From Escherichia phage vB_EcoS_Uz-1, in sequence record OP312987.1: 64,000 nt of DNA. One strand, written 5' to 3'. This document shows positions 43,587-64,000 of the stretch, piece after piece. Position 1 is the first letter of the stretch, and each line of letters starts with the position of its first letter. The position numbers and the translations under genes are program-made. A model generated the notes under the pieces. That model searched no databases. It worked only from the letters and a program-made list of their open reading frames with translations, and was not told the DNA's origin.

Positions 43587-43903
43587 GAACCCGTCTTCGA
43601 TGATATTACTGAGTGACCTTTACCGAAACCAGATGTAGCCAACGCTATAGCGTAGATGTTTACCGGCAGGTCACCACGGTCTTTAGTTACGATGGTTGCA
43701 CCCATGCAGGATGCCATTTTAGCCAAGAAGTAGGCTACTTCGACACGGAAGAATCCCCGGTCATTGTTCTGGGTTTTATTGCAGAGCACATCTACGATTT
43801 CTTCAATCGCTGGATGGTGCACTACTCCGGTAAGGTCAATACTCATGATGGAAAATATCTCTCTCTTTGTTTGCAAATGGTCGCGACAGGGCAGTATAAA
43901 CAA
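43583..43903 (-). CDS. small hypothetical protein, possibly the N-terminal segment of the primase gene
   Basis: 106-aa ORF ending ATSGFGKGHS..., ATGA overlap with the primase ORF. Confidence 0.4.
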   Translation of the reverse strand: MFILPCRDHLQTKREIFSIMSIDLTGVVHHPAIEEIVDVLCNKTQNNDRGFFRVEVAYFLAKMASCMGATIVTKDRGDLPVNIYAIALATSGFGKGHSVISSKTGS

Positions 43904-44823
43904 CGCTTAACCTGCCCCTCCACGACCTTGATAGCACCCTTGCCACCTTTTTCAGCCATGAAGATACGGGCAGATGCCATATCGTCAAAGTTTTTGGTAC
44001 TTCTGGCTCCAGGCACATCTACCTTAGAAGCATCAGAGAAGTATTTGAATTGTGGCTCTGTTCGCCACAACTCCTCGTCAGTACATTCAGGAATTTCCTC
44101 TTCAGGAGCATCCCAGTACTTTTCGATGAGGTGAATCTTCTCTTCCACCCAACGTTCAGTCTTCTCGACAGATAGCAGCGGAATATCCTTATGCATAATA
44201 CGATTAGCAGGATAGTTCGGGTTGCTATTAGCCATGTGTTTCATGAAGTCAGTGAAGATGTAGTTAATACGGATTACATCCTCCGTAATGATGTCGTTAT
44301 GAATCCAACGGTACAAGCTGCCTTGCATCTTGTGTTCATCATCACGGGAACCGGCAACCCAGGAATAGGTTGAGGTAGACTTAAAGTCTTGCAACAGACC
44401 TTCCGTTACGATGTCGAACTTACCACCGATAGTCCAACCCTTAACTACCCTGGTTCCACGTTGTTCAATGTAGATTGGGATAAGGTCTGGGTTAGCATCA
44501 AAGTCTGCTTTGGTTGGGTTAATGACTACTGCATCAATGACTCGCTGAGGATAGCCTAGTTTCTTCAATGCAGTCTTATGCCCCAGCTTCCAGGCTTTCT
44601 CAATAGAATCATGCAAGCCAGTACCCATTGATGTGGAGACGAAATCCATAACATCAATGGATTGTTCACTGAGATCTACGCGATGCTTCATGACGATTTG
44701 CTTAATGGGTTTAAGCAATGTAGTAGCAGACAAGTACTTAGGATTGTCTACATAATCATACTCGTCATGTAATAGCCATACAGCTAGTGCAAGACTAACG
44801 TCGTGTTTGTTGGTAAGTTTCAT
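43843..44823 (-). CDS. PD-(D/E)XK nuclease, Cas4-like exonuclease with C-terminal Cys cluster
   Basis: GKFDIVTEG...QDFK nuclease-like motifs and C-terminal C-x2-C-x5-C (KRCLYCPVATICK); 326 aa. Confidence 0.5.
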   Translation of the reverse strand: MKLTNKHDVSLALAVWLLHDEYDYVDNPKYLSATTLLKPIKQIVMKHRVDLSEQSIDVMDFVSTSMGTGLHDSIEKAWKLGHKTALKKLGYPQRVIDAVVINPTKADFDANPDLIPIYIEQRGTRVVKGWTIGGKFDIVTEGLLQDFKSTSTYSWVAGSRDDEHKMQGSLYRWIHNDIITEDVIRINYIFTDFMKHMANSNPNYPANRIMHKDIPLLSVEKTERWVEEKIHLIEKYWDAPEEEIPECTDEELWRTEPQFKYFSDASKVDVPGARSTKNFDDMASARIFMAEKGGKGAIKVVEGQVKRCLYCPVATICKQRERYFPS

Positions 44824-45317
44824 AACAGTCCCAATTGCTTATTAGTTTTAGCAAACTCACCATAATGAGTTATAGCAGCTTCATCATAGAGAACAGCAGC
44901 TTCTCTTGGGTCATCTGTAAAACCTAATGTAATTGGTTTACTGTTAACCCAAATAGTTGCTCTGTATTTACCTAAATTCTTTGAAAAGGATACCCCCTTA
45001 AATCCAGATGTGTTTGTTTTAGATAAAACAGCACTCTGGTTATTCTGCTTGTGGGTCGCTTCTCTGAGGTTATCTATCCAGTTGTGATGGCGAATATTGT
45101 CCTTATGGTCAATCCTATCCGTAGGCCATACACCGTGCACATAGAACCATGCAAGGATATGCCCATAGTACAACACACTATCTACACGGAGTTGAACGTA
45201 ACCACTCTTCATTAGGTAACCAGATACCTTTCCGGTATTCCTACGAGTAAAAATCCCGGAAATAGGGTCATAACTAACAAGCTGTAAAAGCCTGTCATGG
45301 GCAATCCTCTGTTTCAT
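44820..45317 (-). CDS. HNH homing endonuclease with AP2-like DNA-binding domain
   Basis: HNH motif IDHKDNIRHHNWIDNLREATHKQN followed by GFKGVSF...YRATIW...LGFTDDPREAAVLYDEAA; 165 aa; flanked by a duplicated fragment of the downstream gene. Confidence 0.85.
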   Translation of the reverse strand: MKQRIAHDRLLQLVSYDPISGIFTRRNTGKVSGYLMKSGYVQLRVDSVLYYGHILAWFYVHGVWPTDRIDHKDNIRHHNWIDNLREATHKQNNQSAVLSKTNTSGFKGVSFSKNLGKYRATIWVNSKPITLGFTDDPREAAVLYDEAAITHYGEFAKTNKQLGLL

Positions 45318-45324
45318 AATTAGT

Positions 45325-45392
45325 TACTCGTCATGCAATAGCCATACAGCCAGGGCCAGTGATACATCATGGTTGTTGGTTATCTTCATTAG
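45325..45392 (-). repeat. duplicated 5' fragment of the exonuclease gene (direct repeat with 44757..44823)
   Basis: About 77% identical over 64 nt to the first 64 nt of the exonuclease gene, first 34 nt nearly identical; encodes MKITNNHDVSLALAVWLLHDE-stop versus MKLTNKHDVSLALAVWLLHDEYDY... Confidence 0.7.
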
Positions 45393-45865
45393 TAAGTAAT
45401 CCTGTATCTGTGAACCCAGTTCCACTTAATTTCACTTAGCTGATTGAAGTTATACGAGTAAATTTCATCTCGTTCATCTTTATAAACAATCTCAATGAAT
45501 GAAAATTCTTTAGTGAAGTGAGGTTTACCATTGTTTGTATGGTGCCAATAACTACCAACGGTATTTACATTCGTAGCAGGATCCGGAAATAACTCACTAG
45601 CTAACTTCTCTTTAGCGAGAATACGATTAGCGTAATGAACCAGCTTCTCAGCATCATACACCGAAGAGTTTCCTGGTTTACCATTACCCATACGGGCAGC
45701 AGCATTTCGCCATAGAGCCTTAAAGGCACAACCTTCATCGAAGGTCATGCCCAGTGCCTGGATAATATCCTCACACTCTGCTTGGTATGGCTCTTGCTCT
45801 TTCCGTTGGGGGTTCTTAACTGGTACTACATACCAGTTATTCAATCCACCGGAGAGCTTAGTCAT
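45389..45865 (-). CDS. hypothetical protein
   Basis: 158-aa ORF; its stop overlaps the ATG of the duplicated exonuclease fragment (TAATG). Confidence 0.55.
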   Translation of the reverse strand: MTKLSGGLNNWYVVPVKNPQRKEQEPYQAECEDIIQALGMTFDEGCAFKALWRNAAARMGNGKPGNSSVYDAEKLVHYANRILAKEKLASELFPDPATNVNTVGSYWHHTNNGKPHFTKEFSFIEIVYKDERDEIYSYNFNQLSEIKWNWVHRYRITY

Positions 45866-46170
45866 TATTCCCCCTTGGGAATCATGTTTGCCTGGAACTC
45901 TGGTTCAGACATCAGACCCAGGTTGTTAATGGACAGATAAACAATGTCTTTCAAATCAACCGAAGTGTCGAAACGCTGGTCCAGACTAATTTTAAGAGAG
46001 TGATTGGCACGGGCCAAATCTTTATAGGTCACATGAGGCTCGTCAGTGAGCAGCATTGTGTTCATAGTAAGCAGGGAGCCATCATCAGCTTTGGGAAGCT
46101 GGAAGATTACCTGTGCTGCTACCATCCAATGATATTTTCTGACAACGGTTTCTTTAGTACTTTTAGTCAT
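45865..46170 (-). CDS. hypothetical protein
   Basis: 101-aa ORF directly downstream of the DNA polymerase gene. Confidence 0.5.
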   Translation of the reverse strand: MTKSTKETVVRKYHWMVAAQVIFQLPKADDGSLLTMNTMLLTDEPHVTYKDLARANHSLKISLDQRFDTSVDLKDIVYLSINNLGLMSEPEFQANMIPKGE

Positions 46171-46661
46171 GCGAATGCCTTTTGAATTATTTGATGAACT
46201 TCATCTGGGGTAGCGTGATTTGGAATTTCAATCTCGTTAGCCCACGTTGGATAAAACAAGGATAGTTCCCCACCCAAACCAACTTCTGGATGAGCAATAT
46301 CAGGATGGTCTTGCCAGTTAACGGCTTCAACCAAGTGCTTGTTCGTATACTGTAAGGTATCCATGTTGTCACGGATCATGAAGTATTGGGCATCATGAAT
46401 GTGAATACAAGGACGGATATCTAACCTGAACTCACTGGTTCTGACTTTACGCATAAACTCTGAGCCAGCACGGTTATTAAGTAGACACCAGCTTTGACCT
46501 AATGCATTACCAGCAGTTCTGCCTTCAGCTTCTGCTTCATACGGAGTCTTACATGTCCCACGTAATACCTGAGCCAGTAAAGGAGTACGCACTCTTAAAC
46601 CAAATGCAGCAGTTACATAACCAGTCTTAGCAGCTTCGTCTAGCTTAGCCTGAACCCACAA
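46167..46661 (-). CDS. DNA polymerase family A, C-terminal fragment
   Basis: ...GYVTAAFGLRVRTP ... AEGRTAGNALGQS ... IHIHDAQYF resemble the Pol I C-terminal region and motif C; frame is open upstream to about 46739. Confidence 0.8.
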   Translation of the reverse strand: MWVQAKLDEAAKTGYVTAAFGLRVRTPLLAQVLRGTCKTPYEAEAEGRTAGNALGQSWCLLNNRAGSEFMRKVRTSEFRLDIRPCIHIHDAQYFMIRDNMDTLQYTNKHLVEAVNWQDHPDIAHPEVGLGGELSLFYPTWANEIEIPNHATPDEVHQIIQKAFA

Positions 46662-46669
46662 ATCACTAA

Positions 46670-47122
46670 CTACATAGAGATCGTGATAACGTTTCTCCGT
46701 AGTTTTAGCCTTCTCTTCGGAGAAGCCACAGTTTTCATTAAGCCCATGTAAGTACCACCATAGGTAAGCAGGAAGGTTGGAGCCTTCGAGTCACTACGTA
46801 ATGATTTGTACTTATGCTGAATGGAATTAATGGATTCTACTGTGTCTTCTATGTCTGGCATCTGCTCACCAAAATAAGCATATGCACGGAGACTGTGACC
46901 ATCATAGCCATCGGTATATACCTTAAGCTTCTGCGGGTCTTTAGTAGTTAAAGCTGAGATACGGTCTTCAAGGCTTGCAAAGTCCAGTCCACAAAATATC
47001 CAACCTGGTGGTGCTTCGAAGCATTTCTTAATCTTCTTGGCGTATTTGGAACCACTGGGGATGGTCTGTAGATTAGGCTCGGACGCTGAGAGACGTCCTG
47101 ATACTGTGCCTCCAAATTGAGG
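46670..47122 (-). CDS. DNA polymerase family A, middle fragment (motifs A and B)
   Basis: Hand translation of a second frame: PQFGGTVSGRLSASEPNLQTIPS ... CGLDFASLEDRISA ... KAPTFLLTYGGTYMGL; the ORF track shows only its last 63 codons (46670..46861). Confidence 0.7.
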   Translation of the reverse strand, partial: PQFGGTVSGRLSASEPNLQTIPSGSKYAKKIKKCFEAPPGWIFCGLDFASLEDRISALTTKDPQKLKVYTDGYDGHSLRAYAYFGEQMPDIEDTVESINSIQHKYKSLRSDSKAPTFLLTYGGTYMGLMKTVASPKRRLKLRRNVITISM

Positions 47123-48633
47123 TTACCGAACAGGTAGTGCCATCCATCTGGTCCAGGTTGTGCATTACGGAAAGCTGGGATGAATGAAGTGATGATCTTA
47201 TCCACCAGCTTATAGTCGATAAGTGCATTGAGCAGTTCCTTAACATCTTCACTCTGCGTATGTGTACGCAGTGCTTTAATAGTGTCACCGTCAGTAGCAG
47301 GTTGCTTGCTCTTAGTAAGACCAAGAACCGGTAAGCCGATGTAGTCAAATAACAATTTCTGTAATTGTGGACCAGAGTTAGGATTAAACTCTATGTCACA
47401 ATCAGCCAACGTTACCTGCTTCTTCTTAAGCTTGGCATTCTTATCGTCTACCCATTCCTGACGAAGCATCAGGGTGAAGTTCTTCATGAGCTTAGACTCA
47501 CGAATAGTTTTCAGAGCCTGGTTCCTGTCAGTTTCCATTTCTTCAGCTACTTGGTTAACGGTTTCCATATTCATGGGCATACCGGTTAACTGCATCTGAA
47601 TAATGTCTTCGCAGGCTGGTTTAAAGATGTTGTTATAAACATCTAGTTGGTTATCAGCTACCAGGGTATCCCAGTGTTTCTCGTAGGTGTACCAGGTACA
47701 CAAACCATCAATAAGGTTGTATCGTAACAGTTGCTCATTAGGAATGAGACGAATGTCTTTAATATCATCCTGAGCATAGTTACCAGCATACTCCTGAGCC
47801 TGCTCTTTTAGACTAAGGTGATTACCAGCACAACTGTTAGTAGCTAAATAAGTAATTAATTTAGTACAGTCCCAGTTACGCAGCATGATGTCCATGCCAT
47901 GCAGTAAGCCTCCAGTATCAATCAGGTTATCCATGAATAACTGATAAATAAGTATGTACACATCATAACTAATGTTGTGATACATCTGCCGTTGGGTGTA
48001 CTTAATGAAGAACTCACGGAGAAGATTTCGAACAATATCATTACGATTGATTCTCCCATAAGGTGCTTCAGTAGCTCCCCTAATTGGCTCGTAATCCACA
48101 TTAAAGGCTATGCCCTGTGTCTTACTCCAACAGAACGTAATTGTTCCTATACCTGCGTTATAGTGCTTTAAACCGAATGCCTCGATGTCTATAGCCAGAG
48201 GCTTATTCATCTCAAGCAACTGGTCTAGCCAGGCTTTAATCTTTTCTGGAGTATCTGGATAGGCTTCAAACTCAATGATTCCCTGACCTGGTTCAGCATA
48301 CTGCCCACGTATGTGGTTTAGTAATGCATCCATACCCTGAGCAATTTTGGCTCTCACTACAGGTGGGTCATAAAAGACCTGTCTGTAACTAGGCGTATAG
48401 ATAACTTTCTGTTTACCCCATACTGAATCACAAACATAGCCGAGATTAGCCTCTGCTTTAGCCTCTTTAGTCAGTATTTTGAAGTAATCAGAATCGGTGC
48501 AGATAATGTACTGGGTCTCTGCATCATCCAGTACTTGCTGCAATTCCTGCTTTATGAACTCCTTAATCTCTCTTGCTGGGGTCTTCTTCTTGCCCGGAGC
48601 AGAGTGAAGTTCAATAAAGATGAAGTCTTCCAT
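46948..48633 (-). CDS. DNA polymerase family A, N-terminal fragment with 3'-5' exonuclease motifs
   Basis: LAIDIEAFGL (Exo I-like) and HNISYDVY (Exo II-like) in a 561-aa ORF; authentic sequence ends near 47100; a strong SD plus ATG at 48670 joins this frame if the T3 run at 48658-48660 is one base longer. Confidence 0.8.
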   Translation of the reverse strand: MEDFIFIELHSAPGKKKTPAREIKEFIKQELQQVLDDAETQYIICTDSDYFKILTKEAKAEANLGYVCDSVWGKQKVIYTPSYRQVFYDPPVVRAKIAQGMDALLNHIRGQYAEPGQGIIEFEAYPDTPEKIKAWLDQLLEMNKPLAIDIEAFGLKHYNAGIGTITFCWSKTQGIAFNVDYEPIRGATEAPYGRINRNDIVRNLLREFFIKYTQRQMYHNISYDVYILIYQLFMDNLIDTGGLLHGMDIMLRNWDCTKLITYLATNSCAGNHLSLKEQAQEYAGNYAQDDIKDIRLIPNEQLLRYNLIDGLCTWYTYEKHWDTLVADNQLDVYNNIFKPACEDIIQMQLTGMPMNMETVNQVAEEMETDRNQALKTIRESKLMKNFTLMLRQEWVDDKNAKLKKKQVTLADCDIEFNPNSGPQLQKLLFDYIGLPVLGLTKSKQPATDGDTIKALRTHTQSEDVKELLNALIDYKLVDKIITSFIPAFRNAQPGPDGWHYLFGNLNLEAQYQDVSQRPSLIYRPSPVVPNTPRRLRNASKHHQVGYFVDWTLQALKTVSQL

Positions 48634-51480: not shown

Positions 51481-53529
51481 TTACTTAACGTGCTTTGACA
51501 GCTTAGTAGCCAATTTGCTCTCTTCTTCAGTCAGACCCATTGCAGCTGAAGACTTCTTAGCTGCACGCTTATAGTCTTGTAGGGCATGACCTTTCTGATA
51601 GTCAGAGATAGGACTATCTTCAGGATGTACGCAGATTATCATGGCATGTTTACCAGTAATGGCAGGCTTATATTTAGTGGGTAGAACGGTCTTAGCTTGC
51701 TTCACTGGTTTTGGTTTGCCGATGGGTTTAGCTGTGTAAGTTGTACGTACATCAGCAATCTTAGCCACTACATCGGAACCAACTCCTAAAGCAGCCCATG
51801 GCTTACGGGCCTTGCCTCGCATTTCCACAAGCAAATCAGCAGCAGCTAATTTATCTTCTGGGGTTGTTGCATTGAGGAACTCTTTGACCAGTTCCTGGAT
51901 TTGTTCTTTCACAGTAGGAGCCTTCTTAATAACGGGTTTAAGGTCAGTAGCCTTCACTGGTTCAGAAGCTACAGTTTCATTCAGTGACTCTTCCATATTC
52001 AGTGCTTCTTTATTAGCAACTGTACGGAATTGTTCTACAGAACCAGATGTGAGATTAGTATATTTGAGGTTAGTACCACGATGTCCACCAACCATAACAA
52101 GTGTGGTAGGTGAACTATGGTTCCCAACGATGGCATCATTAAGCAACTTCTTACCTACTTCTGTCTTAGACAGATAGATACCGTTGTTAACGTTGCAACG
52201 TTCCTCTTCCGGCAGTTCAGCAATAATGTGATATGCAGATACACGCATCTTATTAGTGCTGTACTGAGGAACAGCAAATACATCTTCTGGTGCTACTTTA
52301 CCAAGGATAGTTACGTTACCACCGAAGCTACGAATGTAGCTCATGGATGCTACATGCAGACCATTAGAACAGTCCTGGCGACGGTCAGGGTCTACCAGGT
52401 CTTCGCGTACCTGCACTTTACATCCTACCCATTGACGAATGTTGCCTGAGTGACAATCAACGAATACACGTTTACCATTCTCTAGACTTCTATACTTCAG
52501 ACGTTTCAGGAACAGGATTGAACCATCATCAGCAATAGGTAGCTCAGCAGTTTCCATGAACTTCATCAGGTCTTCAACTGAGTGTAGACGGTCTTTAATT
52601 ACTGGAGCCAGACGCTCAAGGAACTTAGTAAAGCCCTTGTAGTCTTTCAGTTGGGCAGACTGACGCAAGTGACGTTGCAGGTTCTCAACTCCAGGGATAA
52701 CCCCATCGTTGGTAACAGCAACAACCACTTCATCTTCCTTCACATCAGTGTGGAAGTTAGCGTCATCAGTACTAATAGCACCCAATGCAGCCAGTTTCTC
52801 AGAAGCAGCAGCCAGCTTATCCTGATTCGTAACTTTAACCTCTTCTACATAAGGCAGTGGAGTTTCATCGCGACTGGTAAATACAATGTGTACTCCTTTG
52901 ATATGTTTGGCTTGTTTAGCAAACTCACTCATTTCATCATCGGATACTGCACGAATTGCAATAGGCCATTCTTGCTTAAGAATGCTGTCAGTATGCTTAT
53001 AACTCCAACACAGTACATCATTAATAAAACGAACCAGTGCAGGATGGTTATGGTCCTTGTCCCAACCAGTAACCCACATCAGATTGTCACGTTTATCGTA
53101 ACAACCGTCTGCTACTGTTACTTCTGGTTCATTAGCCTGGACAGCCAGGAAGGTATCCATAGCTCTAGACACCAGCGTCTTAGTGGGATTTCCCAGCTTA
53201 ATATCTGAGACGATTCGGGCTGGTTGAGTACTTGTACCATCTTCGAAGAACTCTTTGAGTTTAGCCTTAGCTACCTTGAAGAAACGGACGAATCCGTTAG
53301 TGTTCTTCTCTGCTTCCAGATATTCAGTACGCAGGTTTACTTCTGGTGCAATGTTTACTTCTATCTGGTCTTTGGTAGTTCCCAGACCTTTGGTTTGTGC
53401 TTCAGATACAATACGAGCAACCCGTGGGTCGCTCTGAGGATATACAATCGTGGAGCCATCAGGCTTCCACAGTGTAAGGTTACGACTGTCAACTGCCAGT
53501 GCGATGATAGAAATCAGTTCGATTTTCAT
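51481..53529 (-). CDS. large hypothetical protein, rIIB-like candidate by position
   Basis: 682-aa ORF downstream of the rIIA-like gene; no motif verified. Confidence 0.4.
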   Translation of the reverse strand: MKIELISIIALAVDSRNLTLWKPDGSTIVYPQSDPRVARIVSEAQTKGLGTTKDQIEVNIAPEVNLRTEYLEAEKNTNGFVRFFKVAKAKLKEFFEDGTSTQPARIVSDIKLGNPTKTLVSRAMDTFLAVQANEPEVTVADGCYDKRDNLMWVTGWDKDHNHPALVRFINDVLCWSYKHTDSILKQEWPIAIRAVSDDEMSEFAKQAKHIKGVHIVFTSRDETPLPYVEEVKVTNQDKLAAASEKLAALGAISTDDANFHTDVKEDEVVVAVTNDGVIPGVENLQRHLRQSAQLKDYKGFTKFLERLAPVIKDRLHSVEDLMKFMETAELPIADDGSILFLKRLKYRSLENGKRVFVDCHSGNIRQWVGCKVQVREDLVDPDRRQDCSNGLHVASMSYIRSFGGNVTILGKVAPEDVFAVPQYSTNKMRVSAYHIIAELPEEERCNVNNGIYLSKTEVGKKLLNDAIVGNHSSPTTLVMVGGHRGTNLKYTNLTSGSVEQFRTVANKEALNMEESLNETVASEPVKATDLKPVIKKAPTVKEQIQELVKEFLNATTPEDKLAAADLLVEMRGKARKPWAALGVGSDVVAKIADVRTTYTAKPIGKPKPVKQAKTVLPTKYKPAITGKHAMIICVHPEDSPISDYQKGHALQDYKRAAKKSSAAMGLTEEESKLATKLSKHVK

Positions 53530-53533
53530 CAGA

Positions 53534-53779
53534 TTAGTTACCTTTCAGTTTATTTAGACGATTACGGTAGAGGGACTTAAACCCAGGAATATCCTCTGGA
53601 TTCTTCTTAAGGTGTTTGACCAAACTACCTAAGTCCAGCGTCTGTAGGATGTCATTTTTATTCCAGCTATAACTGAATAATTCTTTGTAATCATTAAGTA
53701 TTTTAAAGTACTTATGATTACGCGGATTAGTCATTATTGCATATGGCTCTAAGTCATCCACTGACTTAATACAACCCAT
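53534..53779 (-). CDS. hypothetical protein
   Basis: 81-aa ORF between the rIIA-like and 682-aa genes. Confidence 0.45.
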   Translation of the reverse strand: MGCIKSVDDLEPYAIMTNPRNHKYFKILNDYKELFSYSWNKNDILQTLDLGSLVKHLKKNPEDIPGFKSLYRNRLNKLKGN

Positions 53780-53880
53780 TTCAACAAGTTTTTCTTTGTT
53801 GTCGTGTGGTCGATTCCGTAGAAAGTCATATGCCCATTCATATTCTGGTTTAAAAATCAGATTCTGTAATGGTTTGAAGG

Positions 53881-55263
53881 TTAGACCAGTATGTCTAGGA
53901 TTTCCCAGTATTCCCTGTCATCCAGTCCTACGTATTCCAGAATACCAATACGGTGTTCAGTAACATATTTCTTGAAGCCTTTACTGGTAATAACTGGCAT
54001 CAGCTCCATAAAGCGAACATCATCAATGTGGATAGCACCTCTCCGTTTGGCCTTGTTAGCTTCGATTTGATTACGGCAGACAACAGTCTCTGCTCTCATC
54101 TCATCAGATAACTCATACCATTTCCACATGGTTCCAATTCGAGCAGTTACTGGGCTACCTGAACCAACCTGATTGGCTAGTACGTAGTACTTAGGTTGCT
54201 CTACTTCAACGAAACCAGACTTATCATGGCGACTTGGGTCTGCAAATTCCTTCTGAATATAAGGCTTTGGTTCCCAATCCCCATTTTTATTCCGTATTTG
54301 GGTAGCACCAAGAACTGCATTCAATGAAATCAGAGAATTAGTTTTACCTCCTGCCTTGGTTTTATTGGCAGCGATTGTCTTAGACCGTTTCTCAGCAGCT
54401 ATCTTAGCTTTCTCTCTACGGAAGTTAGTTGGTTTGTCCCACTCATTATATTGAGTAAGGTCGATTACCCGATAACCCATAGCAGTGAACTTAGCCACAG
54501 CTTCTTCTGCTGCACCCTTCTTAGGTCCAACGACGTGAACAAAAGCTGTACGCTCCAGGTCACCTCGATCGTACTCAGGGAAGTACGAGAAAGAGTCTGC
54601 ACAGTCAGACAAACGTCGGGTAACTACAACGTTTTTGGTAGTGAATATGCCAATACTTTGGTGGGAGTTATTGTATATCCTAAAGTAGTCAGTAAGTTTA
54701 CCTTTTACCAAGTCAACACGGTTACCTTGATTCATTATGTAACCAGACCACTTAATACCAGAGGTTTTCAAAGCAGCCAGCTGAGGTAAGTGCAGATGGC
54801 GATATACTAATTCCGAGAATGGGGAGTATGTACTTTCTTCACGAGTATCCTTAAGAGCACGCATAGCCTTACCATACAGTTTCTTAAGACCTGCGTATTC
54901 AGGACGAGCTAATAATGCCTTATTGGATAAATTACGCCAGTGCTTGATGTAATGCTTACGTTGCTTAGCCCACAAACTAGAGGACATATAGCGTTGAACA
55001 GTTCTGTCTGTAACAGCACCCAGGAATGATGGATACTCCCAGAAGCGAGTAGAGGATTTAGAAGCATATTCTTCAACCTGCTTAATGGCTTCAGGAATCT
55101 TAGCCTTAATCTCTTTCTCCATACGGTCTACTAAATCTACACATAGAGTAGTAATACCATCGTCGGTTAACTTCTGGTTAGACAGCGTTTCTCGACTAGG
55201 AGCAATAGCTAAAGTGTCTGGTGCAGCCTGAACTACTAGATTAGAAGCACCAATAATATTCAT
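53881..55263 (-). CDS. rIIA: rIIA-like protein, C-terminal fragment
   Basis: 460-aa ORF starting 17 nt after the GHKL-ATPase ORF in another frame with no SD; its frame is open ~20 codons upstream into the other ORF's end. Confidence 0.55.
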   Translation of the reverse strand: MNIIGASNLVVQAAPDTLAIAPSRETLSNQKLTDDGITTLCVDLVDRMEKEIKAKIPEAIKQVEEYASKSSTRFWEYPSFLGAVTDRTVQRYMSSSLWAKQRKHYIKHWRNLSNKALLARPEYAGLKKLYGKAMRALKDTREESTYSPFSELVYRHLHLPQLAALKTSGIKWSGYIMNQGNRVDLVKGKLTDYFRIYNNSHQSIGIFTTKNVVVTRRLSDCADSFSYFPEYDRGDLERTAFVHVVGPKKGAAEEAVAKFTAMGYRVIDLTQYNEWDKPTNFRREKAKIAAEKRSKTIAANKTKAGGKTNSLISLNAVLGATQIRNKNGDWEPKPYIQKEFADPSRHDKSGFVEVEQPKYYVLANQVGSGSPVTARIGTMWKWYELSDEMRAETVVCRNQIEANKAKRRGAIHIDDVRFMELMPVITSKGFKKYVTEHRIGILEYVGLDDREYWEILDILV

Positions 55264-55280
55264 GAAGTTGAGGATAAGGC

Positions 55281-56099
55281 CTACAGCTTCTTCACTAGCT
55301 GGGCTGGATACAATTGGTACATTACATTACCGTAGCGAACGTATATGTTACTGCTACCCATATAGCCTTGATACCATCTATCAGACATATCATATGAACC
55401 AGGTTCAAATGGCATGCCTAGTGTATCCAGTAGAGTGTAGTCGCCTTGTTGAATACTATTACTCTCGTCTGTTCTAATGAGTTTGGGAGTACTTAGCTCA
55501 GCTTTAATTTCACCGTTAAACACAATTGATTTGATGTAATGAATAAAGGTATTTAAATCATGTTTGCCTAACTGGAATTTAACTTCCAGACCAGATTCCT
55601 CAGTAGGAATACCAGTAATAATAGGAACAATACCAGGCTTACCATCATTCTCAATTGCAGCCTTAGCTACGTTATATACAGACATCTTCCCTTGGTTCCA
55701 TGATGTAACCTGGAAGCTATCTGTATAAGCGAATGGGGATTTACATCCCAGACCAAAGCCACCAGTAACACTACTGTTGGACTTCTTGGTAGATGCACCA
55801 TAGACACCATAAATGGAGCCAATGAGTTCATCTTGGATACCGTTACCGAAGTCACGGAAGGTAATAAAGTTGTCAGTATCAATGGTAATACGGATAGGAG
55901 TATCAGTCTTACCTGCTTCAATATGGGCATCCCAACTGTTACAGATAGTTTCACGGACTACTGCCAGAGTAGGGTTGTTATACAAGGAAGTACTTAATAC
56001 ATGAAAGAATGCCGGGTCATCAGAGATGCCAAAGGCGATTGCTTCTTTGCCACCCAGTGTCGCTGAAGTGGCTGATTGATTGGTATCTGCAACTAACAT
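55281..56099 (-). CDS. rIIA: rIIA-like protein, N-terminal GHKL (Bergerat-fold) ATPase fragment
   Basis: ExxxNxxDA-type VRETICNSWDAH, DxGxG-type FRDFGNGI and Gly-rich VTGGFGLGCKSPF motifs, as in GyrB/Hsp90/MutL-type ATPase domains found at rIIA N-termini. Confidence 0.65.
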   Translation of the reverse strand: MLVADTNQSATSATLGGKEAIAFGISDDPAFFHVLSTSLYNNPTLAVVRETICNSWDAHIEAGKTDTPIRITIDTDNFITFRDFGNGIQDELIGSIYGVYGASTKKSNSSVTGGFGLGCKSPFAYTDSFQVTSWNQGKMSVYNVAKAAIENDGKPGIVPIITGIPTEESGLEVKFQLGKHDLNTFIHYIKSIVFNGEIKAELSTPKLIRTDESNSIQQGDYTLLDTLGMPFEPGSYDMSDRWYQGYMGSSNIYVRYGNVMYQLYPAQLVKKL

Positions 56100-56126
56100 T
56101 TATTTACTCTCCAGTTTAAATGTTGC

Positions 56127-56375
56127 TTACATTAGAACTTGTTTACACTTATCAAAAATAGCTTTACGAAGTTCAGCTTCTTCCCGTGGTTCATCATTAG
56201 GATGGTGACCTACAGGACTATTTTGAAAAGCATTCATTAGGAATAAGACCTGATACTCGGTTAAACCATTAATCTGAATGCTATACGTTTTCTCTGAGGC
56301 GATATTTACATTAGCCATTGCGTTTACCTGCCATTGCTTGTAATACAAACACAGCCATATCTGATGCCATGTCAT
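56127..56375 (-). CDS. small hypothetical protein
   Basis: ORF track 82 aa; probable start at internal Met (MANVNIAS...) near 56318 because of overlap with the upstream ORF. Confidence 0.4.
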   Translation of the reverse strand: MTWHQIWLCLYYKQWQVNAMANVNIASEKTYSIQINGLTEYQVLFLMNAFQNSPVGHHPNDEPREEAELRKAIFDKCKQVLM

Positions 56376-56685
56376 CTGTTATATCGTTGACCGTTCCATA
56401 TGGTAGTGGGCCGTTCTCTTCCCAGTTATCTAACGTGTTTTGTACTTCAGCTAAACCAGCCTGAATCATTTCCTTGCTTGGTTCCAGCCATAACTTACGT
56501 TCCTCTGCTAGTGCAGCGATGCATATGCATAGAGAGGCAATGTTAGCTGGACAAGCAGCAATATCACCAGTTACTGCAATCTCACTGAGTGGGACAGCCT
56601 TACCGGTTTTACTATGAATTACTTCAGGGTTAATCATGAATTTGCTCCAGGTTATGGGCAGGAATAGGGAAGCATGGATAGTCAC
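56311..56685 (-). CDS. hypothetical protein
   Basis: 124-aa ORF. Confidence 0.45.
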   Translation of the reverse strand: MTIHASLFLPITWSKFMINPEVIHSKTGKAVPLSEIAVTGDIAACPANIASLCICIAALAEERKLWLEPSKEMIQAGLAEVQNTLDNWEENGPLPYGTVNDITDDMASDMAVFVLQAMAGKRNG

Positions 56686-56842
56686 CGGTAGGGTCCAGTG
56701 TTACTGACACATGCAGTGTATTTGTCATTTGGGTTAGCATCTGAGCAGCATTGAAATCATCCTGGATACAGGCATATACAATGTCGCCCTTCTCACCCTC
56801 ACACATTACGGGTGTGTCTTTGATACGGTATTTAGCAGGCAT
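56630..56842 (-). CDS. small hypothetical protein
   Basis: 70-aa ORF immediately downstream of a minus-strand terminator. Confidence 0.4.
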   Translation of the reverse strand: MPAKYRIKDTPVMCEGEKGDIVYACIQDDFNAAQMLTQMTNTLHVSVTLDPTGDYPCFPIPAHNLEQIHD

Positions 56843-56867
56843 ATGCCCTCCTGAAAGAGTTAATTGA

Positions 56868-56897
56868 AACCAAAAAAGACCTCCCGGAGGAGGTCTT
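56868..56897 (-). terminator. intrinsic terminator
   Basis: AGACCTCC-CGGA-GGAGGTCT hairpin followed on the minus strand by TTTTTTGG. Confidence 0.7.
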
Positions 56898-56901
56898 AGG
56901 T

Positions 56902-57117
56902 TTACTTACGATTTTGTTCTACAAATCGTATCATTTGTTTTTTCACTTCTTCTTGCTCACGAATTGCTTCGTAGTCACGAGCAAAGTAGTAAACACACCA
57001 TAAACCAATCTCGCTTACAAAGAACAGAATACTAGCTCGAATGAACTGCATATCTGTTTCTACGACAAAGGCAACTTTGTATGCGTAGGTCAGTGTTAGT
57101 AGGGTACTAATTAGCAT
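56902..57117 (-). CDS. small membrane protein
   Basis: 71 aa with two hydrophobic segments. Confidence 0.5.
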   Translation of the reverse strand: MLISTLLTLTYAYKVAFVVETDMQFIRASILFFVSEIGLWCVYYFARDYEAIREQEEVKKQMIRFVEQNRK

Positions 57118-57136
57118 TGCGTATAGAGCTAGTTTT

Positions 57137-58081
57137 TCATTCTGTAATTGTTTCTCCGGGGATTAGTTTACGGAATTGGATGAAATCCAGTAAGTTGCCA
57201 GAATACAGCTTACCTTCACGGTCCATAGATGTAACACCCTGTTCCCATGTTAATGGGTTCTGGTTGTTCACATACTTATCACCAACAGTCATAGGAGTTG
57301 CCTGGTGTTCGGTAGGGGATGCATGAATAGGTTGGTTTTCAACTAACTTAGCAAACAATCCTAAGTCCTCTTCAATAGTAGATGGACGGCCTTCGAAATT
57401 GTTGTAAGAAGCACGAGCACAACGAGCAGCACTTACTTTAAGAAGTAAGCCATACACTTCTTCACGACTTGGCTCATCACGAGTAATTCGCTGATGTTTG
57501 CAGTAATTATAAGCCCCGACACGATCAATATGAGCAATATACGGTAAATGCCATTCCCCTTGTGGGAGTGCTCTCGTAGTGCTTTCATTGTGTGCCTTAC
57601 GCATTGCTTGAGCCAGTTCACGAATCTCTGGTTGAGCGTCCTCATGGTCACGCAATCCATAGAAGTTAGTCCAGCTAGTTGAAGTTACCACTACACGGAT
57701 ATGTGTGAATGGTTCCAGAATACGGTTAACAATCTGCTTATGTACTTGACCACGACGAAGCATTTCTGCATAGGTAGCAGCACTGGACGCAGCCTGATTC
57801 CAGATAAAGATTGCATCTACGTTGGTCTTCGGACTGAGTTCCTCAAATGCCTGCATACCCTTCTGGTTCTTACCCCAGTGACTTGGCATCACTGGTTCAT
57901 TACGAACCTGTTCGATGAACTTAGAAGTAGGGATAGCACGACTACTTGAAGCATTTCGGTTGAATACACGGTGAGTCATAAACTCACTGTGGATGAATCG
58001 GGGGTAAACCAATTCAAAGGTAGTAATACGAGTTCCTGTTTCTGGGTGAACGGAATCTGCAATGACAGTTGCCTTAATCAT
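57137..58081 (-). CDS. thyX: ThyX-like (flavin-dependent thymidylate synthase family) protein, tentative
   Basis: Segment TTFELVYPRFIHSEFMTHRVFNRNASSSR resembles the ThyX core around the RHR...S.R signature as recalled, with T in place of the first R; 314 aa. ThyA motifs absent. Confidence 0.45.
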   Translation of the reverse strand: MIKATVIADSVHPETGTRITTFELVYPRFIHSEFMTHRVFNRNASSSRAIPTSKFIEQVRNEPVMPSHWGKNQKGMQAFEELSPKTNVDAIFIWNQAASSAATYAEMLRRGQVHKQIVNRILEPFTHIRVVVTSTSWTNFYGLRDHEDAQPEIRELAQAMRKAHNESTTRALPQGEWHLPYIAHIDRVGAYNYCKHQRITRDEPSREEVYGLLLKVSAARCARASYNNFEGRPSTIEEDLGLFAKLVENQPIHASPTEHQATPMTVGDKYVNNQNPLTWEQGVTSMDREGKLYSGNLLDFIQFRKLIPGETITE

Positions 58082-59555: not shown

Positions 59556-60062
59556 TTAATTAAGCCGTCTAGCAGCTACTGGTTTATCTTCCTGGTTCTG
59601 ATACTTGCCATTGTAATTAGCAGGTTCTTGAACCAGATGAAATAATACTTGAGCTATCCCAGCACCAGCCGGGATATGCAATTTCTTACGACCATGATAG
59701 ACCAGTTCGAGGGTAAGATACCCTTTCCATCCTGGTTCTATTACGGTATTGAACACTGATAATGCACGTCTTGCCCACGTAGACTTATCGTGAACGATGG
59801 CTACACAGGACGGGGACATATTAAACTTCTCAATTGCTGAGGCCAAGGCGAACTTACCGAGATGGCGTGATACTTGATTTCCATCAACGACTTTCACCAT
59901 TGGAATCAACCCAAATAAGCGATAGAAGGTAATATCCTGTTTGATACGAATATCATAACCAGCTTCACCTAATCCGTAGCTTACACCATGCTTAGATACC
60001 TTACGGTCTGGGACATCCAGCAGCTGAGATGAACGGTATAGAGAATTACCATTAACAACCAT
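59556..60062 (-). CDS. dCTP deaminase-like protein (dUTPase superfamily)
   Basis: AGYDIRI and VIEPGWKGYLTLELVYHG resemble dCTP deaminase/dUTPase motifs; 168 aa. Confidence 0.55.
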   Translation of the reverse strand: MVVNGNSLYRSSQLLDVPDRKVSKHGVSYGLGEAGYDIRIKQDITFYRLFGLIPMVKVVDGNQVSRHLGKFALASAIEKFNMSPSCVAIVHDKSTWARRALSVFNTVIEPGWKGYLTLELVYHGRKKLHIPAGAGIAQVLFHLVQEPANYNGKYQNQEDKPVAARRLN

Positions 60063-60580
60063 TATTTCATTCCTTTAGGGATATGAACTACCTCCCCAAA
60101 AGGTACGGTAGCATTGGGATTATTCAGAACACACCAGATGATAGGAATATCAAATGGCAATTCTTCCATTGGACGAACATACATATCGGAGAATATGATT
60201 GCAGCGGTTGGCTTATTCTTAATAATCCAATCACGTACTGGTTCCAGGTTTGTACCACCACGACCTGTAATCTTAATCTCTTCAAATGTATCTTCTTCAG
60301 TGATGTCTATCTCTTCTTGGATAATATCGTCGAAGGTAATTAGGGACATCTTCTTAGGATTGAACTGGCTTTTAACGTAGGCAACCTCTGAGTTAAATCG
60401 CAGAGAGTCTGCACTACTAATAGAACCAGATACATCTTCAAAGTAGGCCAGGTGTCGTAAACGTCCTTCATCATCTTCCATAGAAGGTAGATAGATATCA
60501 GTAAAACGACGGTTAGGTCTGGCCCATGTATAACGTGATTCATCAATGTCGGTAAAAAGTTCATCAGAACTTCTTGCCAT
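60062..60580 (-). CDS. VWA-like domain fragment (C-terminal part of a metallopeptidase-VWA protein)
   Basis: MIDAS-like EDVSGSIS and ITGRGGT motifs; upstream region continues in other frames toward the metallopeptidase ORF. Confidence 0.55.
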   Translation of the reverse strand: MARSSDELFTDIDESRYTWARPNRRFTDIYLPSMEDDEGRLRHLAYFEDVSGSISSADSLRFNSEVAYVKSQFNPKKMSLITFDDIIQEEIDITEEDTFEEIKITGRGGTNLEPVRDWIIKNKPTAAIIFSDMYVRPMEELPFDIPIIWCVLNNPNATVPFGEVVHIPKGMK

Positions 60581-60634
60581 GGAACCACTGGTTTAAGAAA
60601 TTGGGTAATAACCTCTTCCATACGACCAGCACCC

Positions 60635-61234
60635 TTACCTGGCATCTGTCCACCAGCCATTTTCTGGCTTTGCATTGCACGTACTACGTTGTTGACAACA
60701 GCACCCTGGGACTGCCCGGAGTGGGGATTTCATGTCGCCAGCAAGACCTGCTCCAGCACCCCCTGACGGCTTCTGCCTTTTCTGAGGGTTCTTCATCAAG
60801 TCATCGTAGATATCTTCTTCGACCCATCCTTTATATTGAGGGTCTTTGCAAATACCTTTGTCGATACCAGTGAATTTGTAACCATCTTCTTCTAACTGAA
60901 GGTTAATGAAGTGGTCACATGCCTGGTTCCAGACTTCTGGGTCACGGCTTCCACGACGGATGTCATGTAGATATGCCACATGCCAGAGTTCGTGCATTAA
61001 CACTGTTTCTCTTGCGTCTGGACACATCCAGATAAAGAAATCTGGATTGAAATGGAGTTCTATCCCATCGGTACATGCAGTGGGACAATCCTCGCGTTTC
61101 CACGAGAACTTAAGACTACATAGTAATGAACCAAAGAACGCAGCGCTTCGACCTAGGAAAGCCTGAGCTTGAATACGATCATATTCACGCATGAGTTGTT
61201 CATCTGTGAGACTATGCGTAGGTATACTGTTCAT
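60635..61234 (-). CDS. zinc metallopeptidase-like fragment (HExxH), N-terminal part of metallopeptidase-VWA protein
   Basis: HELWHVAYLH motif; C-terminal ~40 aa of the ORF look out of frame (Cys/Gln-rich). Confidence 0.55.
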   Translation of the reverse strand: MNSIPTHSLTDEQLMREYDRIQAQAFLGRSAAFFGSLLCSLKFSWKREDCPTACTDGIELHFNPDFFIWMCPDARETVLMHELWHVAYLHDIRRGSRDPEVWNQACDHFINLQLEEDGYKFTGIDKGICKDPQYKGWVEEDIYDDLMKNPQKRQKPSGGAGAGLAGDMKSPLRAVPGCCCQQRSTCNAKPENGWWTDAR

Positions 61235-61712
61235 TAGGGTGCTCCATGATTGGGGTGATAGCCATACAGTTTTTCAGCCGCTTTTCTGGCGTCTATGGCA
61301 TCTTGCTTGTCTGCAAAAGTGCCCAAACTTACCAGACGTGTTCCATCAGATATAGCTGCATACCAGATGGAATCACGCTTGTGCCAGTACACACCAGTAA
61401 CACCACTGGAATTAGTTACCCGTTTCTTTTGGTTTCTGGTGTTAGTTCTGCTGTCTACTAATCTAAAGTTACTTAGAAGGTTATTAACCCTATTGTGGTC
61501 TAGGTGATCAATCTGCATACCTTTCGGGATAGGTCCATTGTGCATTTCCCATATGACACGGTGCACTTTGTAACTTTTGCCCTTATAGTTGAAGCATAAA
61601 TAACCATCGCTATTTAGATTACCTACCTTTTTCCAGCAATGCCTCTGGAGGCTACTGTAACTTTCCAGAATAGCTCCCCATTTATGTAAACGAGTATGTC
61701 ATTCCAGTTCAT
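61234..61712 (-). CDS. HNH homing endonuclease with AP2-like domain, frame-shifted in this assembly
   Basis: ORF track 61234..61566 has HNH motif IDHLDHNRVNNLLSNFRLVDSRTN and AP2-like tail; the N-terminal ~50 aa (MNWNDILVYINGELFWKV...) lie upstream in another frame from ATG 61712, joined if an A5 run gains one base. Confidence 0.75.
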
Positions 61713-61719
61713 GTTGTGA

Positions 61720-62220
61720 TTATCCGTGAATGTAGCGGGAGATGTTAGCAGCAGCCTTACGCCATTCAGGGGTAGCCTGAAGTTCTGGCAATGCTCTGCC
61801 TACTGTACGAAAGTACAGAATCTTATGAGTGAACGTTTTAAAGCGTTCAATGTACTGAAGAACATCAGCGAAGTTTTCCTCAGTAGTTTTGTTAGCCAGA
61901 TGGTTAACGGTAGCCCAACACAGGTTATTATCTTCCGGTAGTGTACAGCCCATAGGGTCTTTGACTACCTTATCAATCGTAATGATACGATTGTACACCT
62001 GTGTAAATTGAACAAACTCTGTAGCCTTACCAGCAGTAACGTGTCCTGCATAGTAGATAGAATCTTCATCAGGCAGAGCACCTTCAGGACGGTTCTTGAG
62101 GTCTTTGTTAACAAAGTCCCAGGTACGAGGGCAACAGAACGTTTTGTTCTTATGTGCTGGGTCGAAGTCATGCAGATAACCGGGGTTAGCATGTAAGAAT
62201 GCAACCAGACGTTCATCCAT
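61720..62220 (-). CDS. MoxR-like AAA+ ATPase, C-terminal fragment
   Basis: 166-aa ORF overlapping the 3' part of the ATPase ORF in another frame; protein-like sequence. Confidence 0.5.
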   Translation of the reverse strand: MDERLVAFLHANPGYLHDFDPAHKNKTFCCPRTWDFVNKDLKNRPEGALPDEDSIYYAGHVTAGKATEFVQFTQVYNRIITIDKVVKDPMGCTLPEDNNLCWATVNHLANKTTEENFADVLQYIERFKTFTHKILYFRTVGRALPELQATPEWRKAAANISRYIHG

Positions 62221-62771
62221 TGTTGTGGAATCATTACGTCTTCAACAAAGATGTCGAAGTTAAGTTCCATTTCGAAGTGGACAACACGGGACTGCATTGC
62301 AGTACCCAGTGGGTTAACGATGGCACGGTCAGTAGCTTTGTTACCAGCACAGATAATCATCACATTAGGATGAAGTTTTTTCTGACCAGTCATACGGTCT
62401 AGAATCAGTTTATATGCAGCAGCTATTACTTCTTTGCGAGCAGATGGGAACTCATCAAGGAATAAGAGCCAGCCATTATATCCTTCCGGTATTTTATCCC
62501 CTTCAATTGGGAATAAGTCAGCGAATGGAATAAACTCTGCACGGTCACCATTACGGAATGGTAAGCCAGAAAGGTCTTCCGGGGCAGAAGTTGACAGACG
62601 ATGGTCTATCAACTTCATACCAAATTCTTCTGCAATAGAACGAATGATTGCAGATTTACCCATGCCAGGTGATGAAGTCAGGAACGGTACGTTACCTGCT
62701 TTCAAAGCACGGATAATAAAGTTACGAGCTTGACGTGAATTACATACGGTCAAGGAGTCAATGCTTGCCAT
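61965..62771 (-). CDS. MoxR-like AAA+ ATPase, N-terminal part
   Basis: Walker A SSPGMGKSA, Walker B LLFLDEFPSA, ICAGN sensor-like motif; last ~60 aa look out of frame. Confidence 0.7.
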   Translation of the reverse strand: MASIDSLTVCNSRQARNFIIRALKAGNVPFLTSSPGMGKSAIIRSIAEEFGMKLIDHRLSTSAPEDLSGLPFRNGDRAEFIPFADLFPIEGDKIPEGYNGWLLFLDEFPSARKEVIAAAYKLILDRMTGQKKLHPNVMIICAGNKATDRAIVNPLGTAMQSRVVHFEMELNFDIFVEDVMIPQQWMNVWLHSYMLTPVICMTSTQHIRTKRSVALVPGTLLTKTSRTVLKVLCLMKILSTMQDTLLLVRLQSLFNLHRCTIVSLRLIR

Positions 62772-62805
62772 TTACTTACTCTCCTAAAGCTAATGGAATT
62801 ACTGA

Positions 62806-63135
62806 TTAAGATTTAGTGCAGGGATAGGCCTTGTGTACTGAGTACACAACAATTTGAGATGTATTCTTCATCTTGAGGATTGCAGAGTCATAAATAACCA
62901 CTTTGGCAATCTTAGGCAGAATGACCGAATATTTAATACCTTCTGGAACACAGTTATCTGTGCTCTCGATGTAAGAGATCATACTGCCCATGAAGAAACC
63001 TTGTCCGAACGCATCACGAGTGTCATCCAGGTAAGCCTGAGCACCTTCCAGAATTGGTTCTGGTTCAATTGCTTGTGCACTTGGGGCTAAAGCTATCAGT
63101 GCAGCTACTGCAATACCTTTAAGTAAAGTTTTCAT
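62806..63135 (-). CDS. secreted/periplasmic hypothetical protein
   Basis: N-terminal signal-peptide-like MKTLLKGIAVAALIALAPSAQA; 109 aa. Confidence 0.55.
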   Translation of the reverse strand: MKTLLKGIAVAALIALAPSAQAIEPEPILEGAQAYLDDTRDAFGQGFFMGSMISYIESTDNCVPEGIKYSVILPKIAKVVIYDSAILKMKNTSQIVVYSVHKAYPCTKS

Positions 63136-63321
63136 TTAGTTACCTTTCATTTCATTGAGTTTAAGTACACCGATAGGGGTTAATGACCACCCAAGACCAG
63201 CATTGAACTGAACTAAGCCCAGCTTCTTAAGAGACTGTGCGGTTTTGTTATTACGGTTGCTGGTGGCAGAACCACCTTGAACCATACGAAGGAAGATTGC
63301 TTGGGACTGAGTTAATTTCAA
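63136..63321 (-). CDS. small hypothetical protein
   Basis: 61-aa ORF abutting neighbours in a compact operon. Confidence 0.4.
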   Translation of the reverse strand: MKLTQSQAIFLRMVQGGSATSNRNNKTAQSLKKLGLVQFNAGLGWSLTPIGVLKLNEMKGN

Positions 63322-63527
63322 AGGTAATATCCTTCCAGGTTTATTGGTGTTACAAATGTATTTGCTGATAGATAGAATGATTTACCAGTTTCTACAGCAA
63401 CAGCAGCAGGTTTGCCTTCAGGTAGGTGAATCTTTAAACACACTGTCTGGTTATAAATAAAACCATTAGCAGGCTCTACATCACCGAAAGTTACTTCATT
63501 GTTCTCAGAACGATTTGTTACTTTCAC
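63318..63527 (-). CDS. small hypothetical protein
   Basis: 69-aa ORF, 4-nt overlap with neighbours. Confidence 0.45.
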   Translation of the reverse strand: MKVTNRSENNEVTFGDVEPANGFIYNQTVCLKIHLPEGKPAAVAVETGKSFYLSANTFVTPINLEGYYL

Positions 63528-63784
63528 TCATCTTCTCCTTCATCCGGTAGCGGTGATAAATCTACACCTAAATGCTTCAGGCGTTTCTCTAAGTCATCTA
63601 CCTTATTTTGATAAAATGACAGTAGCTCAGGTAGTATTCTTGTACGAGCTTGCGGTCCTAAATCCTTATCGTAAAAGGATACTTTCACCATATGTGGAGC
63701 TTTCTTCAAACTAGCTAATTGCTGTCGGTTGTCGTTGTATTCTTCATACAATTTCTCAACCAAATGTAGATTGTGGATATTCAT
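63524..63784 (-). CDS. hypothetical protein
   Basis: 86-aa ORF, 4-nt overlap with neighbours. Confidence 0.5.
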   Translation of the reverse strand: MNIHNLHLVEKLYEEYNDNRQQLASLKKAPHMVKVSFYDKDLGPQARTRILPELLSFYQNKVDDLEKRLKHLGVDLSPLPDEGEDE

Positions 63785-63969
63785 TTCTTCTCCGGTACGA
63801 ACTGCATTACACAGCTTTGATTACGAGGGATATTAAGTTCACATTCATGCTTGAGGGTTTGTGTTACAGAGTTTGGAGTAGAACCAAAATAGGTATTGGA
63901 GATAGCTACGAATCCTGCACCTATTAAACCACCTAGTAAGAATGAGAAGAATGCAATCTCTTTATACAT
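63781..63969 (-). CDS. small membrane protein
   Basis: 62 aa with N-terminal hydrophobic segment IAFFSFLLGGLIGAGFVAI. Confidence 0.45.
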   Translation of the reverse strand: MYKEIAFFSFLLGGLIGAGFVAISNTYFGSTPNSVTQTLKHECELNIPRNQSCVMQFVPEKK

Positions 63970-64000
63970 TTCCTGGCTCCAGATGTAGAAAACCCAGTCA

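Follow-up and report, generated by a model that had tools for sequence, protein, structure and literature searches.

Gene layout at the gp24/gp25 locus

We analysed a stretch of 64,000 nucleotides (nt) from Escherichia phage vB_EcoS_Uz-1 (OP312987.1; the window) and within it a small HNH endonuclease gene at 61234-61712, which the first-pass annotation had described as frame-shifted and wedged between two genes that normally form a functional pair. Its upstream neighbour is gp24, encoding an AAA+ ATPase, and its downstream neighbour is gp25, encoding a protein with metallopeptidase-like and VWA-like domains. All genes between 58 and 64 kilobases (kb) of the window are on the minus strand. The following features were located at the gene and its upstream border:

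61722-61720, minus strand: stop codon (TAA) of gp24, the end of the upstream gene
61719-61713, minus strand: 7-nt spacer from gp24 to the HNH gene
61234..61712, minus strand: free-standing HNH-AP2 homing endonuclease gene (Bp4 orf67; orthologue of G7C gp24.1)
61623..61712, minus strand: N-terminal fragment, 29 codons and then TAG, the ATG frame as read in the window
61628..61632, minus strand: A5 homopolymer (T5 on the plus strand), the site of the frame break; A6 in phage PD38

The gene begins with ATG at 61712 and ends with TAA at 61236-61234. The gp25 ATG (61234-61232) shares one base with this TAA (TAATG), and the spacers, first given as 0-7 nt, were close to that range, the actual values being 7 nt upstream and -1 nt downstream. 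As read in the window, the frame of the ATG at 61712 encodes MNWNDILVYINGELFWKVTVASRGIAGKR and ends at TAG 61625-61623, while the HNH/AP2 frame has no stop between 61698 and its end at 61234 and contains KKVGNLNSDGYLCFNYKGKSYKVHRVIWEMHNGPIPKGMQIDHLDHNRVNN. One extra A at 61632-61628 gives a single open reading frame (ORF) of 159 amino acids (aa). With an intact homologue as tblastn query, residues 1-29 and 28-159 were found in two different frames of the window. Reading of the minus-strand frames bore out the gene coordinates and the A5 run as the junction. The break was found after codon 28, not after the roughly 50 codons originally proposed; that figure came from the first GTG of the downstream ORF, which lies about 50 codons in. 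The gene is 100% identical to its counterpart in Escherichia phage Bp4 (NC_024142.2 / KJ135004.2; Gamaleyavirus, Schitoviridae) and 99.8% identical to that of PD38 (MH669274.1), a phage of the same species as Bp4. The Bp4 record annotates it (orf67) as 61234-61545, i.e. as a shorter product with an internal start.

Origin of the frame break

The PD38 copy has A6 and an intact ORF of 480 nt (159 aa). A genome-wide comparison of Bp4 with PD38 gave 3 substitutions and 41 missing bases, and every one of the latter (41/41) is missing in Bp4. Forty of the 41 lie in runs of at least two identical bases; 36 fall inside the window, which has them all. Five sites are found in 60.5-62.3 kb: A6 to A5 (60554-60558), C4 to C3 (60715-60717), G5 to G4 (60723-60726), T6 to T5 (61628-61632, the run in the endonuclease gene) and C3 to C2 (62217-62218). 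The extra base is present at these sites in PD38 (5/5) and in other relatives wherever they can be aligned, save pSb-1 at the G run at 60723. The other relatives have no homopolymer at 60554, and at 61628 their sequence differs or the gene is absent.

Because the homopolymer shortening is one-directional, we attribute it to base calling and not to evolution, and since the window has no insertions or deletions (indels) relative to Bp4, it inherits the errors of that record. It is almost certain that the frameshift stems from an under-called homopolymer in the Bp4 record and was carried over into the window, with A6 as the true run. The frame-shifted gene of the first-pass annotation is, as biology, not borne out.

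The A5 run might instead be genuine and the gene a decaying pseudogene that arose by a 1-nt deletion, a normal stage in the life cycle of homing endonucleases. Decay at this very site does occur: a 31-nt deletion in the Moonfish copy (Moonfish locus 2501-2949) creates TGG TAA and removes the AP2 domain, and this copy is apparently genuinely decaying. A frame-shifted HNH-AP2 gene pair was also reported by Barth et al. in ICP1 (PMC10448857). However, the A5 run is accompanied in the Bp4 record by 40 other losses alike in type and direction, some of them in DNA polymerase, primase, gp24 and gp25, against the mere 3 substitutions that separate Bp4 from PD38. There is no reason to take A5 as real, because a viable phage cannot carry all 41 losses, and we consider a pseudogene improbable.

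Junction anatomy and distribution among Gamaleyaviruses

The gp24/gp25 site is occupied in Bp4, PD38, Moonfish, G7C, UE-S5a, UE-S5b, UE-M3, UE-M6 and Mimir124. This corresponds to 11 of 58 matching phage records (9 distinct phages) and to 9 of approximately 42 Gamaleyavirus genomes. In the remaining records the site is empty, with gp24 and gp25 only 3-7 nt apart (IME11, U1G, pSb-1, ZQ2, PGN829.1, AN24P2, PhAPEC7 and others). As had been proposed, the HNH gene separates, exactly at their junction, two genes that lie side by side in most relatives. Two features mark the ends of the insertion:

61713..61722, minus strand: gp24 stop codon and 7-nt spacer; the endonuclease gene takes the ATGAAC start of the empty-site gp25
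61232..61245, minus strand: 3' end of the endonuclease gene, with GGAG at 61245-61242 and TAATG, for re-initiation at gp25

The empty site reads CACGGATAA, TCACAAC and ATGAAC, followed by CAGATACCTCAGCAC, and the fragment spanning the empty gp24/gp25 junction contains TAATCACAACATGAACCAGATACCTCAGCACACACTTAGTGATGAACAACTC. In carriers, the same leader and ATGAAC now open the endonuclease gene. At the 3' end of the carrier gene, GGAGCACCCTAATGAAC is followed by AGTATACCTACGCAT, with the Shine-Dalgarno-like GGAG and the overlapping gp25 start; the TAATG overlap would probably couple translation of gp25 to that of the endonuclease. Both gp24 and gp25 are full length in the carriers G7C and UE-S5a, and gp24 is full length in the carrier PD38. 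Two protein sub-lineages, 57% identical, occupy the site. A search of IMG/VR with the endonuclease protein gave only distant relatives (at most 46% identity), in unrelated phage contigs.

An intron-borne endonuclease was rejected for the 61234-61712 gene: Rfam gave no match in 60000-63000, leaving the region without an intron signature, and the gene has its own start and stop codons. A promoter or terminator of its own was also considered: a scan for sigma-70-type sites gave fewer sites than shuffled sequence, but is uninformative here because N4-like phages use their own RNA polymerases.

The tight packing and the probable co-translation with gp24 and gp25 could also indicate that the HNH protein is not selfish but a functional third part of a gp24 ATPase/gp25 VWA-like module. 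It is, however, missing in about 80% of close relatives, where gp24 and gp25 are intact and adjacent, and the same protein family is found at an unrelated site in the same genome and, at no more than 46% identity, in unrelated phages. We regard this role as very improbable.

A carrier-linked haplotype in gp25

We compared the flanks of the insertion between 6 carrier and 7 empty-site genomes. Differences that separate the two groups were confined to one feature:

61172..61234, minus strand: first 63 nt of gp25, a putative target or co-conversion tract with a carrier-linked haplotype

Eleven alignment columns had no allele in common between carriers and empty sites, all of them in gp25 nt 6-62. 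No such diagnostic column was found in the following 237 nt of gp25 or in the last 300 nt of gp24. The carrier-haplotype changes include multi-step synonymous arginine codons (CGT to AGG or AGA). A one-sided, tightly linked flank of this kind is the trace that would be expected of a free-standing homing endonuclease, and the comparison narrows the likely target to the first ~63 nt of gp25.

Domains of the endonuclease

Two domains were assigned in the restored protein:

61435..61572, minus strand: HNH_3 catalytic domain, residues 48-93 (Pfam HNH_3 and alignment with I-HmuI)
61261..61407, minus strand: AP2-like DNA-binding domain, residues 103-151 (Pfam AP2 below its cut-off and a profile search of PDB)

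HNH_3 (PF13392) scored 63.5 bits with the restored protein and 60.6 bits with the window ORF, far above the gathering cut-off of 24.8 bits, and the HNH assignment stands. The best solved relative was I-HmuI (PDB 1u3e; E 7.4e-7). D69-H70 (minus strand, 61509-61504), N82 (61470-61468) and N91 (61443-61441) align onto I-HmuI D74-H75, N87 and N96, which we take to be the catalytic positions (Asp-His, structural Asn and metal-binding Asn, respectively). The D-H, N and N residues are kept in every intact homologue. From residue 33 onward, the protein matches the N-terminal DNA-binding strands of I-HmuI.

The AP2 assignment was upheld in part. Pfam AP2 (PF00847) gave 23.3 bits, under its cut-off of 33.3, with E 7.8e-5 and coverage of profile positions 1-53 of 54. 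Solved AP2/ERF domains were nonetheless matched by a C-terminal profile, built from the AP2-like domains of five homologues and searched against PDB. AP2 domains made up 8 of the 9 best matches and 9 of 10 overall, led by WRI1 (7wq5; E 1.1e-10) and including ERF096 (4.6e-4), TEM1 (5.2e-4), AtERF1 (1.6e-3) and apicomplexan AP2s; PDB entries 5wx9, 7et4 and 1gcc were among the AP2/ERF set. Single-sequence AlphaFold2 modelling of the 110-aa ORF placed strands at 57-64, 67-73 and 78-84 and a helix at 87-101, with a mean predicted local distance difference test score of only 47.9 (58-71 in the domain). NCBIfam gave no match for the endonuclease, gp24 or gp25. The gene is of a known and already annotated kind (Bp4 orf67, G7C gp24.1), and its product is of the HNH-AP2 homing endonuclease class described for phages (PMC10448857).

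A single reading frame

The PHROG profile phrog_99 ('HNH endonuclease') aligned in one stretch over residues 1-157 (E 4.5e-56), and because of this continuous alignment we assign the N-terminal piece to the same gene. This piece is in frame with the rest in PD38, G7C, UE-S5a, Mimir124 and Moonfish, as the first-pass annotation had supposed in treating it as part of one gene.

Two further explanations of the interrupted frame were weighed. The two frames could be joined, and the endonuclease throttled, by programmed -1 ribosomal frameshifting or by transcriptional slippage at GGA AAA AGG TAG. If tRNA-Lys slipped by -1 on A_AAA_A, ahead of the rare AGG and the stop, the product would be exactly the PD38 protein, and a GAGG lies 9 nt upstream of the A run. 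The zero-frame codons GGA AAA AGG TAG do not, however, form an X XXY YYZ heptamer, and the stability of the downstream RNA was like that of shuffled sequence (z = 0.06). The site is crossed in a single frame in the intact PD38, G7C, UE-S5a and Mimir124 copies and in the truncated Moonfish copy, and the break belongs to the genome-wide set of under-calls. A5 is too short for efficient transcriptional slippage. We therefore give programmed frameshifting very little credence. Hardly any more can be said for a genuine A5 at which full-length enzyme depends on an occasional -1 slip of tRNA-Lys at A_AAA_AGG, with stalling at the rare AGG and the TAG after it; if true, slippage at A5 would intrinsically limit the expression of a homing endonuclease that might be toxic.

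It is similarly hard to credit that there are two genes, a 29-codon upstream ORF and a shorter HNH protein made from an internal ATG or GTG: the Bp4 annotation (61545..61234) has the shorter form and the 110-aa ORF on its own still contains HNH_3 and AP2, but five homologues have the N-terminal 47 residues conserved in the same frame as the rest, these residues align within phrog_99, and residues 33 onward fall in the I-HmuI alignment described above.

Relationship of the window to the Bp4 record

The window is colinear with Bp4 and has identical ORF coordinates. Between the two there are 3,822 substitutions in 64,000 positions (6.0%), at a transition to transversion ratio of about 2:1, and 0 indels. 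Counted in the true frames, most of the substitutions are at third codon positions, and this holds also where the annotated Bp4 frame is wrong. Of 53 window-specific alleles flanking the endonuclease gene, 46 were found in other Gamaleyaviruses. Judged from these patterns, the window substitutions are natural alleles.

Several blocks are 100% identical to Bp4:

780-1079
5902-11543: tail fibre and spike
35698-36318
37465-38250
44774-45610: the first endonuclease gene of the window
53267-55679
56116-57142
61200-61722: exactly the endonuclease gene studied here
62503-64000

It is not credible that a natural genome would diverge by 6% and have no indel at all, intergenic DNA included. The pattern looks like, and fits, a substitution-only, reference-guided consensus on a Bp4 backbone and not an independent genome. 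Regions missing from the sequenced phage would, if the window is such a consensus, remain as Bp4 reference. The gp25 flank of the window is a hybrid, carrier-type in 61200-61234 and of the empty-site type from 61199 on, and this combination was absent from every natural genome sampled. It points to a composite whose non-Bp4 part came from a phage without this gene.

Neither the hybrid junction nor the sequence around the A run was matched in IMG/VR. No public protein matched the exact gp25 N-terminal fragment or the dCTP deaminase of the window. Among phage records, none was closer than Bp4 around gp24/gp25 (95.6%) and none exceeded 93.8% in the virion RNA polymerase. Derivation of the window from a previous version of the Bp4 entry was considered and rejected, because the protein accession of orf61 is still at version 1 although orf61 shows differences at 12 second-codon positions.

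Other peculiarities of the Bp4 record were also seen. It carries two oddly labelled tRNA genes, tRNA-Xle 'aat' and tRNA-Cys 'aca' (37010-37083 and 37787-37862). Its annotation also splits gp53, gp51, primase gp43, DNA polymerase gp39 and rIIA, and under-call sites fall there:

19780-24862, 41694-43726, 46167-48633 and 53534-56099: genes split in the Bp4 annotation, in the gp53, gp51, gp43, gp39 and rIIA regions

Assessment of the locus

We consider it very probable that the 61234-61712 gene is a free-standing homing endonuclease gene, encoding HNH_3 followed by a C-terminal AP2 domain, that it is inserted precisely between gp24 and gp25 of a Gamaleyavirus (N4-like, Schitoviridae), and that its A5 frameshift is artefactual. 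The conserved catalytic residues, the precise junctions, the patchy occurrence, the one-sided flank and the intact PD38 copy all enter into this assessment.

Some considerations weigh against it. The endonuclease activity and the target site are putative, being assigned by analogy. The carrier haplotype could reflect shared ancestry of the flanks and not target immunity. The under-call verdict is drawn from a comparison of database records. Finally, the 6% substitutions of the window are without an exact match in public proteins or contigs.

Neighbouring genes

61720..62771, minus strand: gp24, AAA+ ATPase, upstream neighbour, split at the C2 run 62217-62218 (C3 in relatives)
60062..61234, minus strand: gp25, downstream neighbour, DUF2201_N metallopeptidase-like and DUF2201 VWA-like, split in the window

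As read in the window, gp25 is in three pieces, with breaks at short runs of C (60715-60717), G (60723-60726) and A (60554-60558), and gp24 is in two. In IME11, G7C and others, gp25 and gp24 are single genes of 1176 and 1053 nt, respectively. The name MoxR, given to the ATPase in the first-pass annotation, is only approximate: AAA (PF00004) passes its cut-off (27.4 bits against 21.2), but AAA_5 does not (16.4 bits against 22), and among solved structures its best relative is the AAA ring of midasin (E 2.6e-4). For gp25, DUF2201_N scored 185 bits and the DUF2201 VWA-like domain 116 bits. RefSeq and PHROG 1314 name gp25 'HNH endonuclease', while Pfam shows DUF2201_N and DUF2201 only, without HNH. 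This name appears to be a misnomer that has been propagated through many Gamaleyavirus records.

Other endonuclease genes

44820..45317, minus strand: a further HNH_3/AP2 homing endonuclease gene (Bp4 orf42), between the gp42 exonuclease and gp41

The presence of two HNH genes in the window, noted at the outset, was confirmed, the second HNH_3/AP2 gene being orf42 at 45317..44820. Its product is 28% identical to the endonuclease at the gp24/gp25 site over 120 aligned residues (BLASTP). The orf42 gene is sporadic, being found in Bp4, PD38, ECBP1, PW8, EC1-UPM and G7C, with related copies in Mimir124 and 24-32N, and is absent elsewhere. Its distribution is not congruent with that of the gene at the gp24/gp25 site. 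With both genes sporadic and their distributions non-congruent, the earlier idea of active endonuclease traffic is reasonable.

A different, longer HNH gene (570-585 nt) was observed in U1G (locus 2713-3653) and pSb-1 (locus 2651-3691), where an insert of ~0.9-1.0 kb interrupts gp24. The U1G insert gave a weak group I intron match (RF00028; 23.7 bits, cut-off 50). PW8 (PQ362703.1) has a split ATPase annotation, which suggests that its gp24 carries a like interruption. No such HNH insert was found in the gp24 of the window.

Known systems and a possible mechanism

The nearest relatives of the gene are vB_EcoP_G7C gp24.1 (YP_004782150.1), annotated as a putative HNH homing endonuclease, and its equivalents in UE-S5a, UE-S5b, UE-M3, UE-M6 and Mimir124. 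They share the gp24/gp25 site, the stop/start overlap with gp25, a length of 158-159 aa, the HNH_3 and AP2 architecture and the gp25 flank haplotype. They differ in sequence, the protein being 57% identical and the DNA ~66%. Between gp24 and the endonuclease gene there are 3-4 nt in G7C and UE-S5a, and 7 nt in Mimir124, the same as here.

I-HmuI, the nicking enzyme of Bacillus phage SPO1, resembles the protein in its N-terminal strands and HNH motif, which align, and in the conserved D-H, N and N. Unlike the free-standing gene described here, it is intron-encoded, and it is unmatched by the C-terminal AP2-like profile. The IPA-HNH enzymes of ICP1 and other phages (Barth et al. 2023, PMC10448857) have the same domain order, HNH at the N-terminus and AP2 at the C-terminus. 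Their genes likewise adjoin conserved replication or metabolism genes and include a frame-split example (PMC10448857). N4-like phages are not mentioned in that survey (PMC10448857), and the likeness here is one of domain order and context.

In its arrangement, the gene closely resembles T4 mobE, a promoterless gene located between nrdA and nrdB. In T2, which lacks the endonuclease, MobE nicks nrdB in its 5' region, and flanking markers are co-converted (PMC2790892; review PMC2988022). Common to both are a free-standing HNH gene wedged between genes whose products cooperate, no evident promoter of its own, polymorphisms or a target in the 5' region of the downstream gene, and co-conversion of the flank, which is putative for the gene studied here. 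The strand-specific nick in T2 nrdB was demonstrated, whereas here the cut is predicted from sequence, and no AP2 domain has been shown for MobE, in contrast to the C-terminal AP2-like domain of this protein.

On the model of MobE, the endonuclease gene would be transcribed together with gp24. During mixed infection, its product would nick or cut the empty-site allele, in or close to the first ~60 nt of gp25. Recombinational repair with the carrier genome as template could then transfer both the gene and its adjoining flank to the recipient. Carriers may be shielded against self-cleavage by the divergence of this flank.

Implications

As a discovery the gene carries little weight, since it was already annotated and its class already described. 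The finding has a practical side: the Bp4 reference (NC_024142.2) has approximately 41 homopolymer under-calls, and anything derived from it carries false frameshifts. For the biology of the Gamaleyaviruses, it marks the gp24/gp25 region as a small hotspot of homing endonucleases.

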